IMG/VR virus record: IMGVR_UViG_2654587728_000015
Source: a virus
Lineage: Duplodnaviria; Heunggongvirae; Uroviricota; Caudoviricetes
Length of the DNA: 39,903 nt
Strand: one strand, 5' to 3'
Below, in pieces: positions 541 through 39,903 of the stretch (positions within the stretch are counted from its first letter, which is position 1; each line of letters starts with the position of its first letter). The translations under genes were made by a program, and so were the position numbers. Below the pieces are notes generated by a model, which was given only the letters and a program-made list of their open reading frames with translations, had not been told where the DNA came from and did no database searches.

Positions 541-1578
541 TTAACGCTTATCCGCCACCAGTTTGAGCGCGTGTTCCAGCACATTAATGTCTGCACCCGC
601 TTTATGGGCATTTTCACTTAAATAACGCCGCCACTGCCGCGCGCCAGGAATACCCTGGAACAAGCCCAGCATATGCCGGGTAATATGGCCGAGATACGTA
701 CCCTGGCTGAGTTCACGCTCAATGTACGGATACATGGCGCGCACTACCGCCACCGGATCAGCATCAGTATCCGAGGAACCAAAAATCTCTCGGTCTACCG
801 CCGCCAGAATACCCGGATTCTGATACGCCTCGCGCCCGACCATCACGCCATCCATATGTTGCAAATGCGCTTTAGCTTCTTCCAGCGACTTGATACCACC
901 GTTAATCGACATCGTCAGATGCGGAAAGTCACGCTTCAGTTGATACACACGCGGATAATCGAGCGGCGGGATCTCACGGTTTTCTTTCGGACTTAACCCA
1001 GAAAGCCAGGCTTTACGTGCGTGGATGATGAACATCTCACACTCACCTTTGCCGGAAACGGTGTTGATGAAATCGCAGAGAAATTCATAGCTGTCCTGAT
1101 CATCGATGCCAATACGCGTTTTCACCGTCACCGGAATCGACACCACATCGCGCATCGCTTTCACGCAGTCGGCAACCAGCTGCGCATTACCCATCAGACA
1201 CGCACCAAACATGCCGTTCTGCACCCGGTCAGACGGGCAGCCGACATTCAGGTTGATCTCATCGTATCCACGCGCTTCTGCCAGCTTCGCACACTGTGCC
1301 AGCGCCGCCGGATCGCTACCCCCGAGTTGCAACGCTACCGGATGTTCTTCTTCACTGTACGCCAGGTAATCACCTTTACCGTGAATAATCGCCCCTGTGG
1401 TCACCATTTCGGTATACAGCAACGTATTGCGGGAAAGCAGACGCAAGAAATAACGGCAATGTCTGTCCGTCCAGTCGAGCATAGGAGCAATGCTAAACCG
1501 AGAATTCCAGTAAACACCAGTTTTTTCAGGCATCACGCTGGTTTGATTAATTTTTTGTGTTTCATGATTATCGTGCAT
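541..1578 (-). CDS. dusA: tRNA-dihydrouridine synthase A (host gene; 5' end is the known target of DusA-associated integrases)
   Basis: 345-aa ORF with Dus family motifs ([31 protein letters not shown]); divergent integrase immediately upstream. Confidence 0.9.
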
Positions 1579-1610
1579 TTTTGAACATTTCAGGCTATTT
1601 TTCTCGCGTT

Positions 1611-1646
1611 AGGTTCCCGCTCAGGTTCCCACGTTTTATGGGAACC
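1611..1646. promoter_or_regulatory. Three copies of GGTTCCC (two direct, one inverted) between dusA start and int start; candidate integrase-binding or int-promoter control sites within the attL region
   Basis: Motif copies at ~1612, ~1624 and inverted at ~1640, read directly. Confidence 0.3.
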
Positions 1647-1666
1647 CGAAATAACGAGGTCGTGTA

Positions 1667-2764
1667 ATGGCGTACTATAACATAGAGAAACGACTAAAAT
1701 CCGATGGCACACCACGCTATCGCTGTAATGTGATTATCAAAGAAAAAGGTGTTATCACTTACAGGGAAAGCAAAACATTCCCTAAACATGCTCATGCCAA
1801 AACATGGGGCACACAGAAAGTGATGGAATTAGATCTATATGGCATTCCATCATCAAATGCAGTTGACGGACTTACAGTCCGTGACTTACTACACAAATAT
1901 TTAAATGACCCAAATGCCGGAGGTAAAGCAGGCCGTACTAAAAGATATGTGCTGGAACTGCTTATGGATAGTGACATCTCCGCGATCAAACTATCTGAAC
2001 TGACAGAAAATGACGTAATTGAACATTGCAGGCTAAGAAACAACGCTGGCGCAGGTCCAGCAACAGTCAGCCACGATGTTAGTTATCTTGGCAGTGTTCT
2101 GGATGCGGCCAAACCTGTATACGGAATTAATTACACATCAAACCCGGCGAAAAGTGCTCGTCCATATCTACTTAAACTTGGTTTGATTGGTAAATCAAAC
2201 CGTCGTAATCGTAGACCAGCATCTGATGAACTGGACATGCTCATTGAAGGCCTTCAACAACGATCTACTCATAAATGCTCAAAAATTCCGTTCGTTGATA
2301 TCCTCAAATTTTCTGTGTGGTCCTGTATGCGAATCGGAGAAGTATGCCGGTTACGATGGGAAGATCTCGACCAGGAACAAAAATCTATACTCGTAAGAGA
2401 CAGGAAAGATCCACGCAAAAAGGAAGGCAACCACATGAAAGTAGCCTTGCTTGGGGAAGCCTGGGATATCGTCCAACGACAGCCCAAAAAATCGGAATTC
2501 ATTTTTCCATATAACAGCACTTCTGTTACTGCGGGATTTCAGAGGGTAAGAAGCAAATTAGGTATTAAGGATCTGCGATACCATGATTTGCGTAGAGAAG
2601 GGGCAAGTCGCTTATTTGAGGCTGGTTTTAGTATTGAGGAAGTAGCCCAGGTTACAGGGCATCGTTCATTAAACGTGCTATGGCAGGTATATACCGAACT
2701 GTATCCGAAATCTTTACATAATCGTTTTGAAGAGCTCCAAAGGAGCAGAAATAAGACCCCTTGA
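1667..2764 (+). CDS. int: Tyrosine-type site-specific integrase (DusA-associated integrase family likely)
   Basis: 365-aa ORF; C-terminal catalytic region with R...HDLRR...GHRS...Y pattern; located at prophage end divergent from dusA; SD ACGAGG 7 nt upstream of ATG. Confidence 0.85.
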   Translation: MAYYNIEKRLKSDGTPRYRCNVIIKEKGVITYRESKTFPKHAHAKTWGTQKVMELDLYGIPSSNAVDGLTVRDLLHKYLNDPNAGGKAGRTKRYVLELLMDSDISAIKLSELTENDVIEHCRLRNNAGAGPATVSHDVSYLGSVLDAAKPVYGINYTSNPAKSARPYLLKLGLIGKSNRRNRRPASDELDMLIEGLQQRSTHKCSKIPFVDILKFSVWSCMRIGEVCRLRWEDLDQEQKSILVRDRKDPRKKEGNHMKVALLGEAWDIVQRQPKKSEFIFPYNSTSVTAGFQRVRSKLGIKDLRYHDLRREGASRLFEAGFSIEEVAQVTGHRSLNVLWQVYTELYPKSLHNRFEELQRSRNKTP

Positions 2765-2812
2765 CACTGTTTATCCATACAGTTAAAAATAATACTGTAT
2801 ACAAACACAGTA
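2761..2812 (+). promoter_or_regulatory. SOS-regulated promoter: -35 TTGACA followed by two tandem LexA boxes (CTGT-N8-ACAG) upstream of dinI-like gene
   Basis: CACTGTTTATCCATACAGTT (~2765..2784) and TACTGTATACAAACACAGTA (~2793..2812) both fit LexA box consensus TACTGT(AT)4ACAGTA. Confidence 0.7.
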
Positions 2813-2825
2813 TAGAGGGACTTTT

Positions 2826-3074
2826 ATGCGTATTGAAATCTGCATAGCCAAAGAAAAAATGACTAAAATGCCAACCGGTGCTGTGGATGCGTTAAAGGAA
2901 GAATTAACCCGACGCATCAGTAAACGTTATGACGATGTAGAGGTGATCGTAAAAGCCACCAGCAACGATGGCCTTTCTGTTACACGCACCGCAGATAAGG
3001 ATTCTGCAAAAACTTTTGTTCAGGAGACTCTGAAAGATACCTGGGAATCTGCTGACGAGTGGTTTGTTCACTAA
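2826..3074 (+). CDS. dinI: DinI-like DNA-damage-inducible protein
   Basis: 82-aa protein with conserved DinI C-terminal motif ([15 protein letters not shown]); LexA boxes upstream; SD AGAGGGA. Confidence 0.8.
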
Positions 3075-3217
3075 TTAACACGTAAAATCGGTAACGGCTG
3101 GAAATCATTCAATAATCGCACTATCGAAAGTTCGCCAGCCAGCCGCAGCACGTTCTTGCATACGACGTGGCTGCGGCTTCCAACATTAGACAAATAACTC
3201 TTTAAATTGCTTTTAAA

Positions 3218-3781
3218 TTATTTCGTTTGAATGCCAGTAACAGGAAATCGTTTATATAGGGTTGATAGCCCAACGTTATAGATACGTGCAACATAACGCC
3301 GTGATTTCCCTGCCGCTATGAGCGCTCCCATCTGTTGCCACTGCTCGTCGCTAAACTTCGGTCTACGCCCACCAATCCGGCCTTTGGATCTGGCAATAGC
3401 CAAACCAGCTAAAGTTCGCTCGCTATTCAAATCAGATTCATACTGCGCAGCAGAAAGAATATTACGGAAATTATAGCGACCACTTGCTGTTTTCAGGTCT
3501 ACGCCATCTGTAATACTCCGAAAATTAACACCTTTTTCGTGCAGATTTTGAAACATCAATAGCGCATGCAGCACATTTCTCCCTATCCGATCTAACTTCC
3601 AGACAATCAACTCATCTCCACTTTTCATCACCGTAATTAATTCCTTTAACACAGGGCGATTAGCTGTTCTGCCACTGGCATATTCTTCATAAATTCGCTC
3701 ACAGCCAGCTGACTCAAGTGCAAGACGTTGCAACTCTGTATCCTGATGATTTGTTGATACACGAACATACCCGTAAATCAT
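3218..3781 (-). CDS. Serine recombinase, DNA invertase of the Gin/Pin/Hin family
   Basis: 187-aa ORF starting YGYVRVSTNHQDTELQ with catalytic serine, resolvase core and C-terminal HTH (VGLSTLYKRF); position after tail fibre and tfa as in Mu gin / e14 pinE. Confidence 0.9.
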   Translation of the reverse strand: MIYGYVRVSTNHQDTELQRLALESAGCERIYEEYASGRTANRPVLKELITVMKSGDELIVWKLDRIGRNVLHALLMFQNLHEKGVNFRSITDGVDLKTASGRYNFRNILSAAQYESDLNSERTLAGLAIARSKGRIGGRRPKFSDEQWQQMGALIAAGKSRRYVARIYNVGLSTLYKRFPVTGIQTK

Positions 3782-3949: not shown

Positions 3950-4318
3950 TTAAAGTTCCGGGATGACAGGCCAGTTAACATGCTCAGGGTCGGTTGTTAC
4001 ATCAACAGCCTTAACCTGATTCTTATATAAAAGCCACGCCGAAAGTTTAGCTCTGTTGGCATCGCTGATTTCACCCAGCATCAGCTCTGTGCGCCAGTCG
4101 AGCATAATTGCATCAGCGGCGGACAGTAATCGCTGTCGCTCATTTTCAGCAGCCTGGATGAGTTGTTCATGAGTCGGTGGGGGATTAATAATTGCCATAG
4201 CCTCACTTCTGGTGATTGGCACAAGCCCTTCTTTGATAAAAGCATCCTGTGTGCCATACGCATCGTAGGCATATACGACGTTATTTTCATCTTTGTAATG
4301 CTTCATCATTGTTATCAT
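3950..4318 (-). CDS. Tail fibre assembly protein (Tfa/U-like chaperone)
   Basis: 122-aa ORF with Tfa motifs ([11 protein letters not shown]...PTHEQL...[16 protein letters not shown]); ATGA start/stop overlap with tail-fibre gene. Confidence 0.85.
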
Positions 4319-5295
4319 TTTTTATCCACCTCTACCCAGGTAACATCTGACACTGTTCCTGAAAACTGCTGCACAATATAGGTCGCACCGGCAGGAACCA
4401 TGAATGCGATAGTTGCTCTTTGCCCTGCAAGATTTGTTGTCTGAGAGCCGCGAAAATTAGCCGAATTACCATCCACATTAACGTTGGCGCTCAGAAATGA
4501 ACTACCGTCAGACAGCACCGCATTGACGCTTACAAATATGGCGAAAGACTGGCTGTTGGTGTATACGACACCGAGATTTCTAGATTTCATTCCGCATTGA
4601 CCAAACAACCCTTTCATATCTGAATAGTTTTGTGATGCAGCAAGTGATGATGCAGCAACACCAGATTCCGTCGATGTTCTGGAATCAGATACGCGGATAA
4701 TTCCCTTGTTTGTTGGGGTCGCATCATTGGTCTTGCCTTGCAACGCCTGTATATCCGCATAATTCATCGCTGCCGCTTTTGCTGTTGCAGCAAGCGTTTC
4801 AGATTCGGATACCCTTGATGATGTAAGTTGAACAATTCCTTTCTGTGTCGTAGTTGAATCCTGAGTTTTGTTTTGCAAAGATTTTATGTCCGTATAGTTT
4901 TGCGCGACAGCATTAGCTGTGGCTGCAATATCCTCTGCACCCGATACCCGCGATGACGTTAACCGGACTAAACCCACCTGTGTTGTTGATGCGTTTTTAA
5001 TACCAAGGTTTTCGAGAGCCGTTTTCACCGTGCCATCCGATTTGATATCACCAAACGGATTCTTGCGGCTTAACAGCAGCGCACGAAGCGCGGTAAGCAG
5101 CTGATCGTGCCGCGCCTTCTCCAGACTGGCACCGGATGCCTCCACCACGCTGCAAAGCTCCTCCTGCAACATGTCAAAGTAGTCATCATCCAGATCGGTG
5201 GCAGGCGTGCCGGTCTGGGGGTTACCACGGGTAAAACCGTTCTTACCCGCGCCGAACTTATCCTTCTGCGCGGTTTTCGTGTCTATACGATGCAT
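4315..5295 (-). CDS. Tail fibre protein (Mu S / e14 Stf-like)
   Basis: 326-aa ORF between gp48-like gene and tfa; internal tandem repeats; C-terminus typical of side tail fibres. Confidence 0.8.
4606..4989 (-). repeat. Three diverged tandem ~40-aa coding repeats inside the tail-fibre gene
   Basis: Repeated units [38 protein letters not shown] / [38 protein letters not shown] / [34 protein letters not shown]. Confidence 0.7.
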
Positions 5296-5886: not shown

Positions 5887-6935
5887 GAAATCGTCCCCAG
5901 TACCGCCAGTTCATTTTTTGCAATGGAGATATTGTCTGCCGGTGCAAGCAACTGATGGCTGTATTCCCCGTTCGCACCGGAAATCGCTTCACTGATACGT
6001 GACACCTTCAGTTCTCCCTGCGGATAACCATCACGCAGCAGGAACGAACGCAACTCCGCGGTAATGGCAGCCCGTATTTCCGGTGTGTCCGGCGTCACGC
6101 GGATATGAAAATCCACCGTATGTGCCACCGGCCTGAATACATACAAATCAGAGCCTGCCACCGGGGCCAGTGGCCCGATATGTTGTCTTGCTGCCGTTTC
6201 CGTTGATTCTTCCGGAATGGGATTAATCAGGTCACTGCTGGCAATCATCACACCGACAGTTCCCGTTCCCATCCAGTGACGGTATGTCCATGCGCGGGTA
6301 ATGCCGGGCACTTCTTTAGCCCAGACGACATAGTCCCCGTCAGCCCCGCCCTGCGGCGTCCAGTAATACCGCTCAATGACGCGGGCGCGCCACGTTTCCA
6401 GCTCTTCAGTATCAAATCCGCCTGTCAGGGTGTCAGCCACACCGGAAGACGGCAGACCATTCACCGGCGTGACCAGGATTAATGCCGTACCGTCGTCAGC
6501 GTTACCGACCGCGCCTGTAGTTGAGCAAGTGATCGGCACACGCAGGACACCACCAGTGCTGGTTGCATCGGCAGTTGCCGTGTACTGAACCAGGTCATCG
6601 CGCTGAATAACACTCCCGGCGGTCACCTTCAGGCCATCGCTGACACCTTCCCAGCGCATATACCCGCTGGCAGCCGTGGCCCCCTTGCGCGGACACCGTT
6701 TCATCGCAGCATGTCGCGCCAGCCAGGACTCATCGCACAGGTCAGGCAGCATATTCATTGCCAGATAATCGATGTACCCGTAAACCGTATGCAGCGCCGC
6801 CGCATACACCTTTGCCCGCACGTCTTCATCCATGCGCCGGAGCGTGTCGCTGACGTCCAGCCTGGCGAATAAATCGTTACGGAGCATACTGATATTTTCT
6901 GCCAGCGTCGGGCGCTGAAATTCACTGTCCGCCAT
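5877..6935 (-). CDS. Baseplate J-like protein (Mu gp47-like)
   Basis: 352-aa ORF; gene order and size match baseplate wedge J family. Confidence 0.75.
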
Positions 6936-7350
6936 GCGTTATCGCACTCCACAGATCATCAAAAGAAATCATTACCGGTCCGTCACGACGCCAGAGAGTG
7001 ATACTGTTACCCAGTTCATTAATCCCGGTGCGGCGGATATCCAGATCAATACGGGACACCACGCCGTCATCAATCATCCATTGCAGGCATTCGCGGATAT
7101 ACCCCCTTACCGTCTGCACCAGCTGATTGGTCAGTTTGCTGCGCTGAAGCAGCCACAGTCGGGAGCCGTAACGGTCATTCTGTACCGCAGGCCAGGTATC
7201 CCCCCACCATCCCATCGGGACGTCGGCATTGTCATCAGGTTCAGCCCGCCGCCAGGTGAACAGGGAAATCACCACGGCACGGGTCAGCGGATCCAGCGGT
7301 GCGCTGGCGCAGGTGCGTTTACCGTTCACCGTCAGCCACAGTTCCATCAT
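6922..7350 (-). CDS. Baseplate protein (Mu gp46-like)
   Basis: 142-aa ORF in conserved position between gp45-like and J-like genes. Confidence 0.65.
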   Translation of the reverse strand: MMELWLTVNGKRTCASAPLDPLTRAVVISLFTWRRAEPDDNADVPMGWWGDTWPAVQNDRYGSRLWLLQRSKLTNQLVQTVRGYIRECLQWMIDDGVVSRIDLDIRRTGINELGNSITLWRRDGPVMISFDDLWSAITHGGQ

Positions 7351-7895
7351 GCCTCCATCGCTTTATCAGGTTTGTCGGTGTTACTGCCCTGACCGTTCTC
7401 TCTGTGACGATGCCCGTTATAGGCAAGCCGCATCGCTGACATGGTGGTGCCGCTGGAGTCGCACAGGTCTTTCACCTGTCCGGTCACTTCCAGGTCCATT
7501 TCAAAACGAGCCTTAGGCGCATTGCGAAACGTGATCGTTTTACCTGCACCGTCCACCACGATCCCCTCCCGGGTCAGCGTCACGGACTGCCCCTGATCGT
7601 CATAGACAGCCACCTCACCCGTCTGCAGCCCTTTCAGGCGGTAGCGCCGGTCCGACACCGTAACAACCACCGCATGAGAACGGTCGCCATCCGGAAACAA
7701 CACCACCGCTTCCGCACCGCTGTTTGCCCTTGAGGTAAAACCGTAGGGTTCAAGATGTTCAACCCCGGCTTTGGGTTCACCGGCAATCAGAGACACATCC
7801 ACGGTCTGACATTTCGTGGCGGCACTGATGCTTTTCACCACTGCCCGCCCAATCAGGCCGAGGAGTTGTCGCTGCATGGCTTCAATCGTCCTCAT
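7347..7895 (-). CDS. Baseplate assembly/spike protein (Mu gp45 / gpV-like)
   Basis: 182-aa ORF in conserved position after baseplate hub gene. Confidence 0.65.
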   Translation of the reverse strand: MRTIEAMQRQLLGLIGRAVVKSISAATKCQTVDVSLIAGEPKAGVEHLEPYGFTSRANSGAEAVVLFPDGDRSHAVVVTVSDRRYRLKGLQTGEVAVYDDQGQSVTLTREGIVVDGAGKTITFRNAPKARFEMDLEVTGQVKDLCDSSGTTMSAMRLAYNGHRHRENGQGSNTDKPDKAMEA

Positions 7896-26352: not shown

Positions 26353-27111
26353 TTATCTTGTCACTTTTCTCAATTGTGTCTCTGCATATGCTTCTTCCTG
26401 CCAGCACTTTGTAACCAGTTTATCAATGACATCTGCATATCCTTTGTACCACTGATAATCCGTCAAATCTGGTACCAGTTTCTGTACATGATGCCGCGCC
26501 AGTGTGGTTGGTAAACGGCTAAACCGGTTTCCATTGCAACGTCCACAAATCTTATAAACAGGCGTGCCATGAAGCCGGGTCCTTTTTTCATCCAGGACAA
26601 TACCTTTACCCTTACACCCTCTGCACGCTGTGCTGACTTCTCCCTTACCATGACAATGCTGACATAGTTCCTTCACCCACTCCTCCTTGATAACAGATTC
26701 ACCGCTTCTGGAGTGTTTCACCACTTCGCGCAATACATTATGAAATCCAGTACCTGCACAATGCTCACAGCGAGCCTTACTTGCCGCAGACCTGGAATAA
26801 TCAGCAAAGGCAAAATTCACAAGGTAAGGGATGATCTGTAACCGGGTTTCTTCACTCAATTTATTCAATGTCGGGTTATCCAGTGCCATCGCGTAATTGA
26901 GCAGACCTTCAATCGCAAACTGAGGATCCTGAACACCAACTTTTGCCAGGAATAAGGCAAAACCCAGTGGTGCTTTCGACTGCACCATCCCCTGCGCAGC
27001 CATCACATCCGTAATCGTTAAACCACCAGAGCCTGTCGCCGGTGCGTCATCGCTCAATTTTGGAGATTTTGGGGAGTAATATTTTGGTAAGGCTTCAAGG
27101 TTCATGCTCAT
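26353..27111 (-). CDS. Q: Late-gene antitermination protein Q-like (Cys-rich zinc-binding region)
   Basis: 252-aa ORF with CEHCAGTG...CQHCHGKG...CRGCKGKG...CGRCNG motifs; located immediately upstream of pR'/tR'-like unit and lysis genes. Confidence 0.7.
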   Translation of the reverse strand: MSMNLEALPKYYSPKSPKLSDDAPATGSGGLTITDVMAAQGMVQSKAPLGFALFLAKVGVQDPQFAIEGLLNYAMALDNPTLNKLSEETRLQIIPYLVNFAFADYSRSAASKARCEHCAGTGFHNVLREVVKHSRSGESVIKEEWVKELCQHCHGKGEVSTACRGCKGKGIVLDEKRTRLHGTPVYKICGRCNGNRFSRLPTTLARHHVQKLVPDLTDYQWYKGYADVIDKLVTKCWQEEAYAETQLRKVTR

Positions 27112-27118
27112 TCTCCAC

Positions 27119-28114
27119 TTACGCCAGTACGCCTATTGCCAGCGCACGATCGATAAAACGAAATATCAGCTCCAGCTGGGAGCCATACTTCTCTTCAAAT
27201 GCCACGGTATCCGCATGCAGCTCGTCGTGATGCTTTCTGCACAAAGGCAACACAAAGAGGTCATGCGCTTTTGTACCCATTCCCCCCTGACCGTGGCCTA
27301 TCAGGTGGTGGGGATCATCAGCGGGCTTTCCACAACATGCACACGGCTGTGTCTTAACCCAGCGCGTGTACTTTTCATTAACCCAGCGGCGACGTTTTGG
27401 GCGTAACATAAAAGACTCCGGCGACTCCGGATCCACTTTCAGCGCCAGCACCTTTTTTGCCTTATCCTGGATGATGCTGGTGGCAGGAACCGAAGGCACA
27501 AGGTCACTTTCCCGGGTGACAGACGGCACAACAGGCTTTGGTAATCTCAGTGCCTTACGGGCTGCACTTTCCGGTAAGGCATCCGCCAGGTCATTACGAA
27601 TCAGCCACCAGCACAGTTCCGGCATTGTCACAACGTGACTATCATCAAAACCGAGATCCCGACGCACAACAGACAACACCCAGCGGGCACAGTTATCCGT
27701 TGCCATTGATTCCAGCCGTTCCGTGAACTGATCGCGCAGCTGGTTATCACAGTGCCAGCACAGACGGATTGCGCCCGGAGCGTGTCGCATTGTGGTCATG
27801 TTCTCGCTGTGCCAGTCGGAATGAGGCCACTGGCAGCCTTTTTCACGAAGTAACCAGCTTTCAAGACATTCCACGCCACCAGCACGACGGATCACTGCCT
27901 CATTGCGGAACACGGCCCGAACAGCAGGATCATCCGCCAGCGGTTGTGATGCCGCGGGAACGGCACCACTGGCGAAAGATGAATAACGTTCCGGCTCAGG
28001 CTCCAGCAGTACACGCCCCTGCATAAACAGGGGCATCAGCTCTGAACCTGGTCTGAACAATACGATCCCCATACGCGGGGCTATTTCAGGGGTCAGTAGT
28101 GCTCTCACGGTCAC
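27119..28114 (-). CDS. DUF968-family prophage protein with C-terminal HNH-like zinc-finger
   Basis: 331-aa ORF ending CACCGKPADDPHHLIGHGQ...CRKHHDELH; apparent GTG start. Confidence 0.6.
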   Translation of the reverse strand: MTVRALLTPEIAPRMGIVLFRPGSELMPLFMQGRVLLEPEPERYSSFASGAVPAASQPLADDPAVRAVFRNEAVIRRAGGVECLESWLLREKGCQWPHSDWHSENMTTMRHAPGAIRLCWHCDNQLRDQFTERLESMATDNCARWVLSVVRRDLGFDDSHVVTMPELCWWLIRNDLADALPESAARKALRLPKPVVPSVTRESDLVPSVPATSIIQDKAKKVLALKVDPESPESFMLRPKRRRWVNEKYTRWVKTQPCACCGKPADDPHHLIGHGQGGMGTKAHDLFVLPLCRKHHDELHADTVAFEEKYGSQLELIFRFIDRALAIGVLA

Positions 28115-38941: not shown

Positions 38942-39223
38942 ATGAACACCTTGTTTTTACTGATGGCTGAATTCAATACCCCTAACATTGAACTCTCAGC
39001 AGTTAGCCAAAAGTACTTTGGCATGAGTCCAGCCACGGCAGAAGCAAAAGCAAACGCTTGTAAGTTGCCCGTTCCAACATATCGCATCGGCACATCACAA
39101 AAAGCAAAACGTTGCATCAATATTCAGGATCTTGCGGAATACATAGACAAAAGACGAGAAGAAGGACGTATCGAGTGGGAACAGGTCAGAACAAGCAAAC
39201 AGAAGGGCAAAGAACATCACTAA
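38942..39223 (+). CDS. PrtN-family / excisionase-like small DNA-binding protein (candidate recombination directionality factor)
   Basis: ORF 38915..39223 with ATG 38942 (SD GGAG); last gene of rightward operon, which in the circular phage lies next to attP/int. Confidence 0.45.
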   Translation: MNTLFLLMAEFNTPNIELSAVSQKYFGMSPATAEAKANACKLPVPTYRIGTSQKAKRCINIQDLAEYIDKRREEGRIEWEQVRTSKQKGKEHH

Positions 39224-39227
39224 ATAA

Positions 39228-39252
39228 AAAACCCGCCTAAAGGCGGGTTTTC
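39228..39252. terminator. Bidirectional rho-independent terminator (ACCCGCC-TAAA-GGCGGGT flanked by A-run and T-run)
   Basis: Perfect 7-bp GC stem between convergent genes. Confidence 0.75.
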
Positions 39253-39270
39253 AAAAAGCACCAGCTATGA

Positions 39271-39434
39271 TCATGCTGCTTTGCGACGACGAAGCTTACC
39301 CTGCTGCTCTTTACCAGAGACAGTAGCGTGAGTGAACGCATTAGGAGCAGCCTTCATCAGAACTTCAACAGCAGCACCCATACCTGCGAATGCTTTCATT
39401 GTGTCGAACTTAACCTGTGGCTTGGTTGCTTTTT
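39271..39434 (-). CDS. Small hypothetical protein (54 aa), convergent with phage early operon
   Basis: ATG with SD AGGAG 7 nt upstream; MEDQKATKPQVKFDTMKAFAGMGAAVEVL...; not in ORF track because under 60 aa. Confidence 0.45.
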
Positions 39435-39483
39435 GATCTTCCATAGAAAACTCCTGAAGTTATACCGAAACAATTCCTGTTGT

Positions 39484-39903
39484 TTACTCATCATCAATAG
39501 ATGATACGCAATATTTATTTTTAAATTTAAGGTTCTTTGGCGTAACTTCATCAGAGATATCAAAACCGTCCAGAATTCTATTGAATGTAGCTTCTGGCAT
39601 ATCATCATGAACAGAAATCTCACCCGATCGCTGCTTTCTAACCATGTTATCCACTCGCCAAATTATAGCTTCAGCGTAAACAACATAACTTGGATGCTTG
39701 ATAAAGCGATGATCACCAGAATTCAAGACGCAAGACGGATCGTGGGGGACACCATCCTTGATACTAGAAATATTAACAACTAAAACACAATAACAATCGT
39801 TAACGGGGTAATAAACAGGATCATTACAAATCACATGAAGATGATTGCATGGCCCAGTTGGGGCAAGCACAGTTCCTTTCCTGTATGGCTGATAATCCGT
39901 CAT
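39484..39903 (-). CDS. AT-rich hypothetical protein (139 aa), start coincides with window edge
   Basis: ORF with ATG at 39903; clearly AT-rich relative to neighbouring phage genes; Cys/His-rich N-terminal half. Confidence 0.5.
   Translation of the reverse strand: MTDYQPYRKGTVLAPTGPCNHLHVICNDPVYYPVNDCYCVLVVNISSIKDGVPHDPSCVLNSGDHRFIKHPSYVVYAEAIIWRVDNMVRKQRSGEISVHDDMPEATFNRILDGFDISDEVTPKNLKFKNKYCVSSIDDE

Follow-up and report, generated by a model that had tools for sequence, protein, structure and literature searches.

The window analyzed here is a 39,903-nt stretch of DNA from a tailed-phage record (IMG/VR IMGVR_UViG_2654587728_000015) in which an Escherichia coli chromosomal segment passes into a prophage. 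Comparing it with related phages, lysogens, and a prophage-free chromosome, we found that positions 1475 to 1666 very probably represent the left attachment site (attL) of an SfV/SKA5-like temperate phage that has integrated into the 5′ end of E. coli dusA, with the GGTTCCC repeats in this segment serving as arm-type sites for the phage integrase. The literature already covers the type of element, the module that it carries, the replacement of the start of dusA, and the family of the candidate excisionase. What appears to be new is the exact core for this window, together with a conserved arm-site architecture of dusA-associated integrases in which the sites co-vary with the enzyme; in the searchable literature, to which this negative is limited, we found no description of arm-type sites for these integrases.

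Integration into the 5′ end of dusA

The dusA gene of the window (positions 541 to 1578, minus strand; 345 codons; PF01207, E = 8e-105) is a hybrid. When aligned with a prophage-free K-12-like dusA, it shows 1 mismatch in 103 nt between positions 1380 and 1482 and 18 mismatches in 99 nt between positions 1483 and 1581; weak residual similarity to the empty site persists until ~1601, and there is none farther to the right. This alignment marks the body of the gene (541 to 1482) as host derived. Because divergence from the empty site begins at 1483, the first 32 codons of dusA are phage supplied. The surrogate 5′ end (1483 to 1601, minus strand), which comprises codons 1 to 32 plus a leader of ~20 nt and makes up the inner portion of the P′ arm, is ~80% identical to the native E. 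coli sequence and changes 9 of 32 DusA residues while keeping both length and frame. It is found unchanged in the free-phage attachment sites (attP) of phages SKA5 and mEp460, and in SKA5 it is labeled “tRNA-dihydrouridine.” Comparison with the empty site and the free phages thus shows the DNA to the right of the core to be phage DNA throughout, opening with an in-frame surrogate of dusA codons 1 to 32. A sequence-only reading of this window had proposed that the element supplies a replacement dusA 5′ end, and the alignment with a prophage-free strain agreed with that proposal: it broke at 1483, and the 5′ end of the gene was not identical to that of prophage-free dusA.

A five-way alignment of attL (the window), the bacterial site attB (K-12-like), the right attachment site attR (lysogen NY1601), and attP (SKA5 and mEp460) contained a single segment identical in all five, TCGAGCAT. 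By this comparison, recombination took place inside TCGAGCAT, which occupies positions 1475 to 1482 in dusA codons 33 to 35 and constitutes the strandless common core, or crossover region, of attL. The core is enclosed by the published dusA att motif TCCAGTCGAGCATAGGAGC (1470 to 1488), and it agrees both with the attB motif and with the 7-base core published for phage 1720a-02 (PMC6328086). That phage, also called Phi-stx2dact, was shown experimentally to form attP circles and to integrate ~100 bp into dusA in Citrobacter rodentium (PMC6328086); the ends of its sequence record have the same core sequence in the same arrangement.

A direct-repeat search found no second att copy inside the window, implying that attR lies beyond it. 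In the related lysogen NY1601, a remnant annotated as “tRNA-dihydrouridine synthase, missing C-terminus” sits at the right prophage end, and attR, with this remnant of the dusA 5′ end, is found ~825 bp farther along than the position corresponding to the window end. The sequence of the native dusA 5′ end directly after the core is TGGTGCAACGC..., and comparison with relatives indicates that this displaced 5′ end now lies at an attR ~39 kb away, a short distance outside the window. The sequence-only reading had therefore been right to place the other att copy outside the window but not in holding that the core could not be located, since sequences from outside the window fix it at 1475 to 1482.

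Putative arm-type sites for the integrase

The dusA start codon (ATG at 1578, minus strand) and that of the integrase gene, int (ATG at 1667, plus strand), are divergent and are separated by a spacer of 88 bp (1579 to 1666), in line with the earlier estimate of ~90 bp. Just upstream of int, the same reading had noted three copies of GGTTCCC, two direct and one inverted, and all three were found: putative arm-type site P′1 (1612 to 1618, plus strand), P′2 (1624 to 1630, plus strand), which starts 12 bp from P′1, and the inverted P′3 (1640 to 1646, minus strand), which ends 20 nt short of the int ATG. Counted from the int start codon, the three sites cover −55 to −21. Across the window as a whole, the number of GGTTCCC copies is unremarkable (8 observed versus 4.5 expected, within the range of shuffled sequences). 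The three copies upstream of int fall within 35 bp, and only two sites in the 39.9-kb window have at least three copies of any 7-mer within 40 bp; the number of such triple clusters expected per window in first-order Markov simulations is 0.13. The other triple cluster consists of ATTTTGG, present three times in 31 bp (27057 to 27087) at the 5′ end of an open reading frame (26353 to 27111, minus strand) and near another (27119 to 28114, minus strand), and could be a regulator or iteron site.

The motif recurs on the opposite arm of attP. In SKA5, mEp460, NY1601, and 1720a-02, the P arm contains GGTTCCC-N4-GG(C/A)TCCC, a pair whose starts are 11 bp apart and which has the orientation of the two direct copies of the window; 43 nt separate its end from the core. 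The GGTTCCC motif is the point at which the P arms of SKA5 and mEp460, unrelated up to there, become nearly identical. It marks the outer edge of the conserved attP, which measures ~230 bp from this edge to the inverted copy ending at 1646.

We compared eight further phage attPs, associated with integrases ~34 to 69% identical to that of the window. A common layout, in which the P arm has two direct copies 11 to 12 bp apart and ~40 to 80 bp from the core and the P′ arm has direct and inverted copies immediately upstream of int, was present in 9 of the 10 phage attPs (integrases 34 to 100% identical to the window integrase), including 7 of the 8 divergent ones. The motif itself changes from phage to phage: CAGCACCCC in YeP1, GTGCTCC in Marinobacter phage AS1, GTGGTAA in Pseudomonas phage Haddon, TTGCTAC in both BcepIL02 and E220, TGTACCA in Marinobacter phage PS6, and GTACGAC in Rhizobium phage RHph_Y3_56_1.

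The comparison also covered 87 loci, comprising 78 genomic loci found with an alignment of the integrase, the window, and the eight divergent phage loci. An 8-mer repeated at a distance of 11 or 12 bp with at most one mismatch was present in the 90 bp upstream of int in 72 of these, compared with 68 of 870 Markov shuffles (7.8%) and 19 of 348 90-bp pieces taken from inside int (5.5%). A strict test for the direct-direct-inverted arrangement succeeded in 25 of the 78 genomic loci and in none of the coding controls (0 of 312) or shuffles (0 of 390). These mismatch-tolerant tests with controls were used in place of a detector requiring exact 7-mers in the direct-direct-inverted arrangement, which scored 17 of 77 loci and, because of a single substitution, missed an Escherichia locus that is 99% identical. 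Furthermore, the motif classes in the 87 loci follow the classes of the integrase N-terminal domain, as defined by its β2-β3 region, a relationship that is descriptive and uncorrected for kinship. Integrases of the KGVITYRES type occur with GG(T/C)TCCC, those of the GKYIYREN type with AGCACCCC, GKHLHRET with GTACACC, GKRIYNES with AGGACACC, and AIVYQES with GTATCCC.

Loci from Vibrio, Shewanella, and Colwellia (L064 to L091) have a second family of tandem repeats (e.g., AATTTCGTTG, present twice) within the 120 bp upstream of int, lying upstream of the putative arm-type pair. Rather than a clear inverted third copy, they have a conserved GTAGGAC(A/G)A immediately ahead of the int start. The second repeat family may be a site for a different, accessory protein.

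Taken together, the copies on the other arm, the conservation of the layout while the motif changes, and the co-variation with the integrase N-terminal domain back the earlier suggestion that the GGTTCCC repeats bind the integrase, and the three heptamers of the window are most likely the arm-type sites of its P′ arm. The repeats might instead be operators for another DNA-binding protein, either the candidate excisionase RdfN (see below) or a phage or host transcription factor acting on divergent int and dusA promoters, but we regard this as unlikely. It would fit the location of the sites within the divergent spacer directly upstream of int, the 8-bp palindrome formed by copies 2 and 3, which is of the type used by dimeric regulators, and the co-occurrence of RdfN with dusA-associated integrases; tandem direct repeats on one att arm are typical binding sites of excisionases, lambda Xis among them. 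It fits less well with the presence of the motif on both arms in the 2 + 3 arrangement that integrase arm sites usually have and with the co-variation of motif class and integrase N-terminal domain, although int and rdfN travel together, such that the co-variation alone does not single out the integrase over RdfN.

Less probable still is the idea that the inverted pair GGTTCCCA-N7-TGGGAACC (1624 to 1646) acts by folding into a hairpin, in either RNA or single-stranded DNA (for instance, a structure in the int 5′ untranslated region), and that the remaining direct copy is incidental. Located 20 nt ahead of the int ATG, the pair could fold into a stem of 8 bp that closes a 7-nt loop, and in one Escherichia sp. 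locus (L012) both of its arms have changed together, to GGTCCCC and GGGGACC. However, in the closely related loci L013, L014, and L069 the second direct copy, GGCTCCC, is not complementary to the inverted copy (GGGAACC or GGGGACC), and the P arm has direct pairs with no inverted partner. The inverted pair was also considered as a terminator and ruled out, because no T-run follows the stem. Finally, a functionless chance cluster, for which only the unexceptional window-wide count of eight copies speaks, is effectively refuted by the cluster simulation and the 87-locus repeat test, in which the layout persists with a changing motif against 5 to 8% in controls, and is at odds with the conservation of the repeats in phages and lysogens.

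The integrase, the candidate excisionase, and a proposed mechanism

The int gene (1667 to 2764, plus strand) encodes a dusA-associated tyrosine integrase of 365 amino acids (PF00589, E = 1e-20, 74.6 bits) that shares 99.7 to 100% identity with its counterparts in phages SKA5 and Lys8385Vzw. Among 61 homologues, R222, H332, and Y342 are invariant and H306 and R309 are nearly so; the catalytic roles of these five residues were assigned by motif position. An AlphaFold model based on the 61 homologues had a mean predicted local distance difference test (pLDDT) score of 86 and showed three strands (residues 2 to 10, 16 to 26, and 29 to 38) and a helix (41 to 58) at the N terminus (pLDDT 83 to 94), followed by a low-confidence linker and then by two helical or mixed domains. 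The N-terminal domain adopted the same fold when modeled alone (pLDDT 88). The predicted architecture is therefore a three-strand-plus-helix N-terminal domain (residues 2 to 58), a flexible linker, a core-binding domain, and a catalytic domain. The best fold matches of the model were the Tn1549 and lambda integrases, with structural alignments spanning 358 to 370 columns to full-length lambda Int versus ~290 to lambda Int(75-356). Fold searches with the N-terminal domain by itself gave no decisive match. A Protein Data Bank sequence search with the integrase returned catalytic-domain matches only.

Across attP from int lies an rdfN-like gene of the PrtN family (38942 to 39223, plus strand; PF11112, E = 4e-23), a candidate excisionase gene that is followed by a terminator-like hairpin (~39227 to 39253) and is ~1.5 kb from the attR predicted by comparison with NY1601. 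Its homologue in mEp460 is annotated as an excisionase. RdfN has been shown to be the directionality factor of dusA-specific elements, in which Int and RdfN suffice for excision (Durand et al. 2021, PMC8409611). The stretch from rdfN to the predicted attR (39227 to 39903 in the window; 6371 to 7572 in locus L003) contains cargo genes transcribed leftward, one of which encodes a Panacea-domain protein in NY1601 and SKA5. Panacea domains are associated with the antitoxins of toxin-antitoxin systems, and the position of these cargo genes next to an att site is one where morons usually accumulate.

We propose that, on the model of lambda-type systems, the C-terminal domains of the integrase would act at the core while its small N-terminal domains bind five heptamers, namely, the three of the P′ arm and two more (GGTTCCC-N4-GGCTCCC) predicted on the P arm next to attR. 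By bridging arm and core sites as lambda Int does, the integrase would build an integrative complex, and together with the PrtN-type RdfN it would form an excisive one. Since the P′ sites lie within the spacer that must also drive transcription of the rebuilt dusA, occupancy by the integrase could damp int transcription, modulate that of dusA, or both; this is speculation from position. The view that the GGTTCCC copies are promoter control sites, also part of the sequence-only reading, is likewise plausible from their position. The integration host factor (IHF) consensus WATCAANNNNTTR had one weak match in the SKA5 attP, with 1 mismatch, on the P arm.

Several observations count against this interpretation. 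The attR and P arm of this prophage itself lie outside the window, and their features were taken from relatives. Ralstonia phage NK-7 has the P′ set of repeats, but no clear copy of that motif was recognized on its P arm. Under strict criteria, just ~25 of the 78 genomic loci have a clear third, inverted copy. A Pfam search with integrase residues 1 to 189 (E values up to 10) returned no arm-binding family in residues 1 to 70, the only hit being a weak match to a core-binding family (PF24624, E = 0.03, residues 72 to 165). As for the regulatory part, a scan of positions 1400 to 2900 for sigma-70 promoters and terminators, and a relaxed scan of 1480 to 1760, found nothing convincing on either strand of the 88-bp spacer; the best hits fall inside the coding 5′ end of dusA.

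We lean slightly toward a more general proposal, namely, that the whole family of dusA-associated integrases, which to date has been characterized by a 21-bp core and compared to the simple recombinase Rci, uses a lambda-like, heterobivalent attP of ~230 bp, in which two arm-type sites on the P arm and two or three on the P′ arm, one of them inverted, would be read by the small N-terminal domain. Given the location of the P′ sites in the control region between the divergent int and dusA genes, their occupancy by the integrase would couple int autoregulation and expression of the rebuilt dusA to recombination.

Distribution, neighboring genes, and comparison with known systems

As a genome feature, the module is routine. 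The dusA part of a 601-nt junction probe was matched by every complete E. coli genome (5426 of 5426), and the integrase side was matched as well by 742 (~14%); the module is also present in several phages, Shiga toxin (Stx) phages among them. Positions 1483 to 3100, which include the surrogate dusA start, the repeats, int, and dinI, are 95.9 to 99.8% identical to ten free-phage records, including those of SKA5, mEp460, Lys8385Vzw, phiSTEC1575-Stx2k, and 1720a-02 (95.9% nucleotide identity over 1483 to 3072 for the last of these). The remainder of the prophage resembles the myoviruses SfII, SfI, and vB_EcoM-689R6. A near-identical attP-int-dinI block is thus carried by the lambdoid phage mEp460, by the Stx phages 1720a-02 and phiSTEC1575-Stx2k, and by SfV-like myoviruses (SKA5 and this prophage). 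Judged from these identities, the block is a mobile cassette common to unrelated phage bodies, and its left boundary falls exactly at the outer heptamer of the P arm.

On the host side, the left part of the window contains pspG of the E. coli chromosome before dusA. On the phage side, int is followed by a DinI-like gene (2826 to 3074), a DNA invertase gene, tail-fiber genes, and a complete phage body that continues to the end of the window. Two LexA-box-like sites (CTGT-N8-ACAG) at 2767 to 2782 and 2795 to 2810 follow the int stop codon and precede the DinI-like gene. Both overlap the promoter-like sequence TTGACA-N18-AAAAAT, and a promoter is annotated at this position in the mEp460 record, which suggests that dinI, directly 3′ of int, is under SOS control. 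The resolvase/invertase gene (PF00239 plus HTH_7) adjoins tail-fiber and tail-fiber-assembly genes in the region of 3218 to 3781 and 3950 to 5295 (both minus strand). An invertase beside tail-fiber genes is the usual arrangement of Gin/Pin-type invertible host-range switches.

What is useful here is the precise core, a map of five putative arm sites that delimit a minimal attP of ~230 bp, and the co-variation of motif and N-terminal domain. These could aid the annotation of the boundaries of dusA islands and Stx prophages, the design of orthogonal integration tools, and the study of whether carrying the prophage alters dusA expression.

Among known systems, the nearest are the elements with dusA-associated integrases (DAI), tyrosine recombinases encoded beside the dusA 5′ end, which the elements replace (Farrugia et al. 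2015, PMC4482086). These elements share semiconserved 21-bp att repeats, and the closest characterized relative of their integrases is Rci (PMC4482086). By its sequence and setting, the window integrase is a member of this group: as in the DAI elements, it is encoded divergently from and adjacent to dusA, the insertion is in the conserved 5′ region, a replacement 5′ end is provided, and a semiconserved att sequence encloses the crossover. There is no difference in kind between those elements, for which E. coli examples were already given, and this prophage; the published description is without arm-type repeats or an N-terminal arm-binding domain (PMC4482086). Phages 1720a-02, mEp460, SKA5, Lys8385Vzw, and phiSTEC1575-Stx2k have an attP-int-dinI segment like that of this prophage, all five heptamers included, with lambdoid or Stx phage bodies, whereas the body of this prophage is that of an SfV/SfII-like myovirus.

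In IMEVchUSA3 and other Vibrio dusA-specific elements (PMC8409611), int lies across attP from a PrtN-family rdfN, as it does here. IMEVchUSA3 is a mobilizable island under the control of AcaCD of IncC plasmids, whereas the element described here is a tailed prophage. Against the integrases of the Vibrio-clade loci and phages that we sampled, the window integrase shows only ~55% identity, a comparison that IMEVchUSA3 itself stands outside.

The lambda-type heterobivalent integrases (those of lambda, P22, HP1, P2, and L5) differ from the present system in several respects. The window integrase belongs to an Rci-like or DAI family rather than to that of lambda Int; its gene is transcribed away from attP, so that the P′-arm sites lie in the upstream region of int itself, and one of these sites is inverted; and the scan of the SKA5 attP gave, with its single one-mismatch match, no clear IHF site. 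What the systems share is a short motif that is present on both arms of attP in 2 + 3 copies and is distinct from the core, a small N-terminal domain on a flexible linker (predicted here), and a separate directionality factor. On this evidence, the dusA-directed system of the window most likely works in the manner of the lambda-type heterobivalent integrases.
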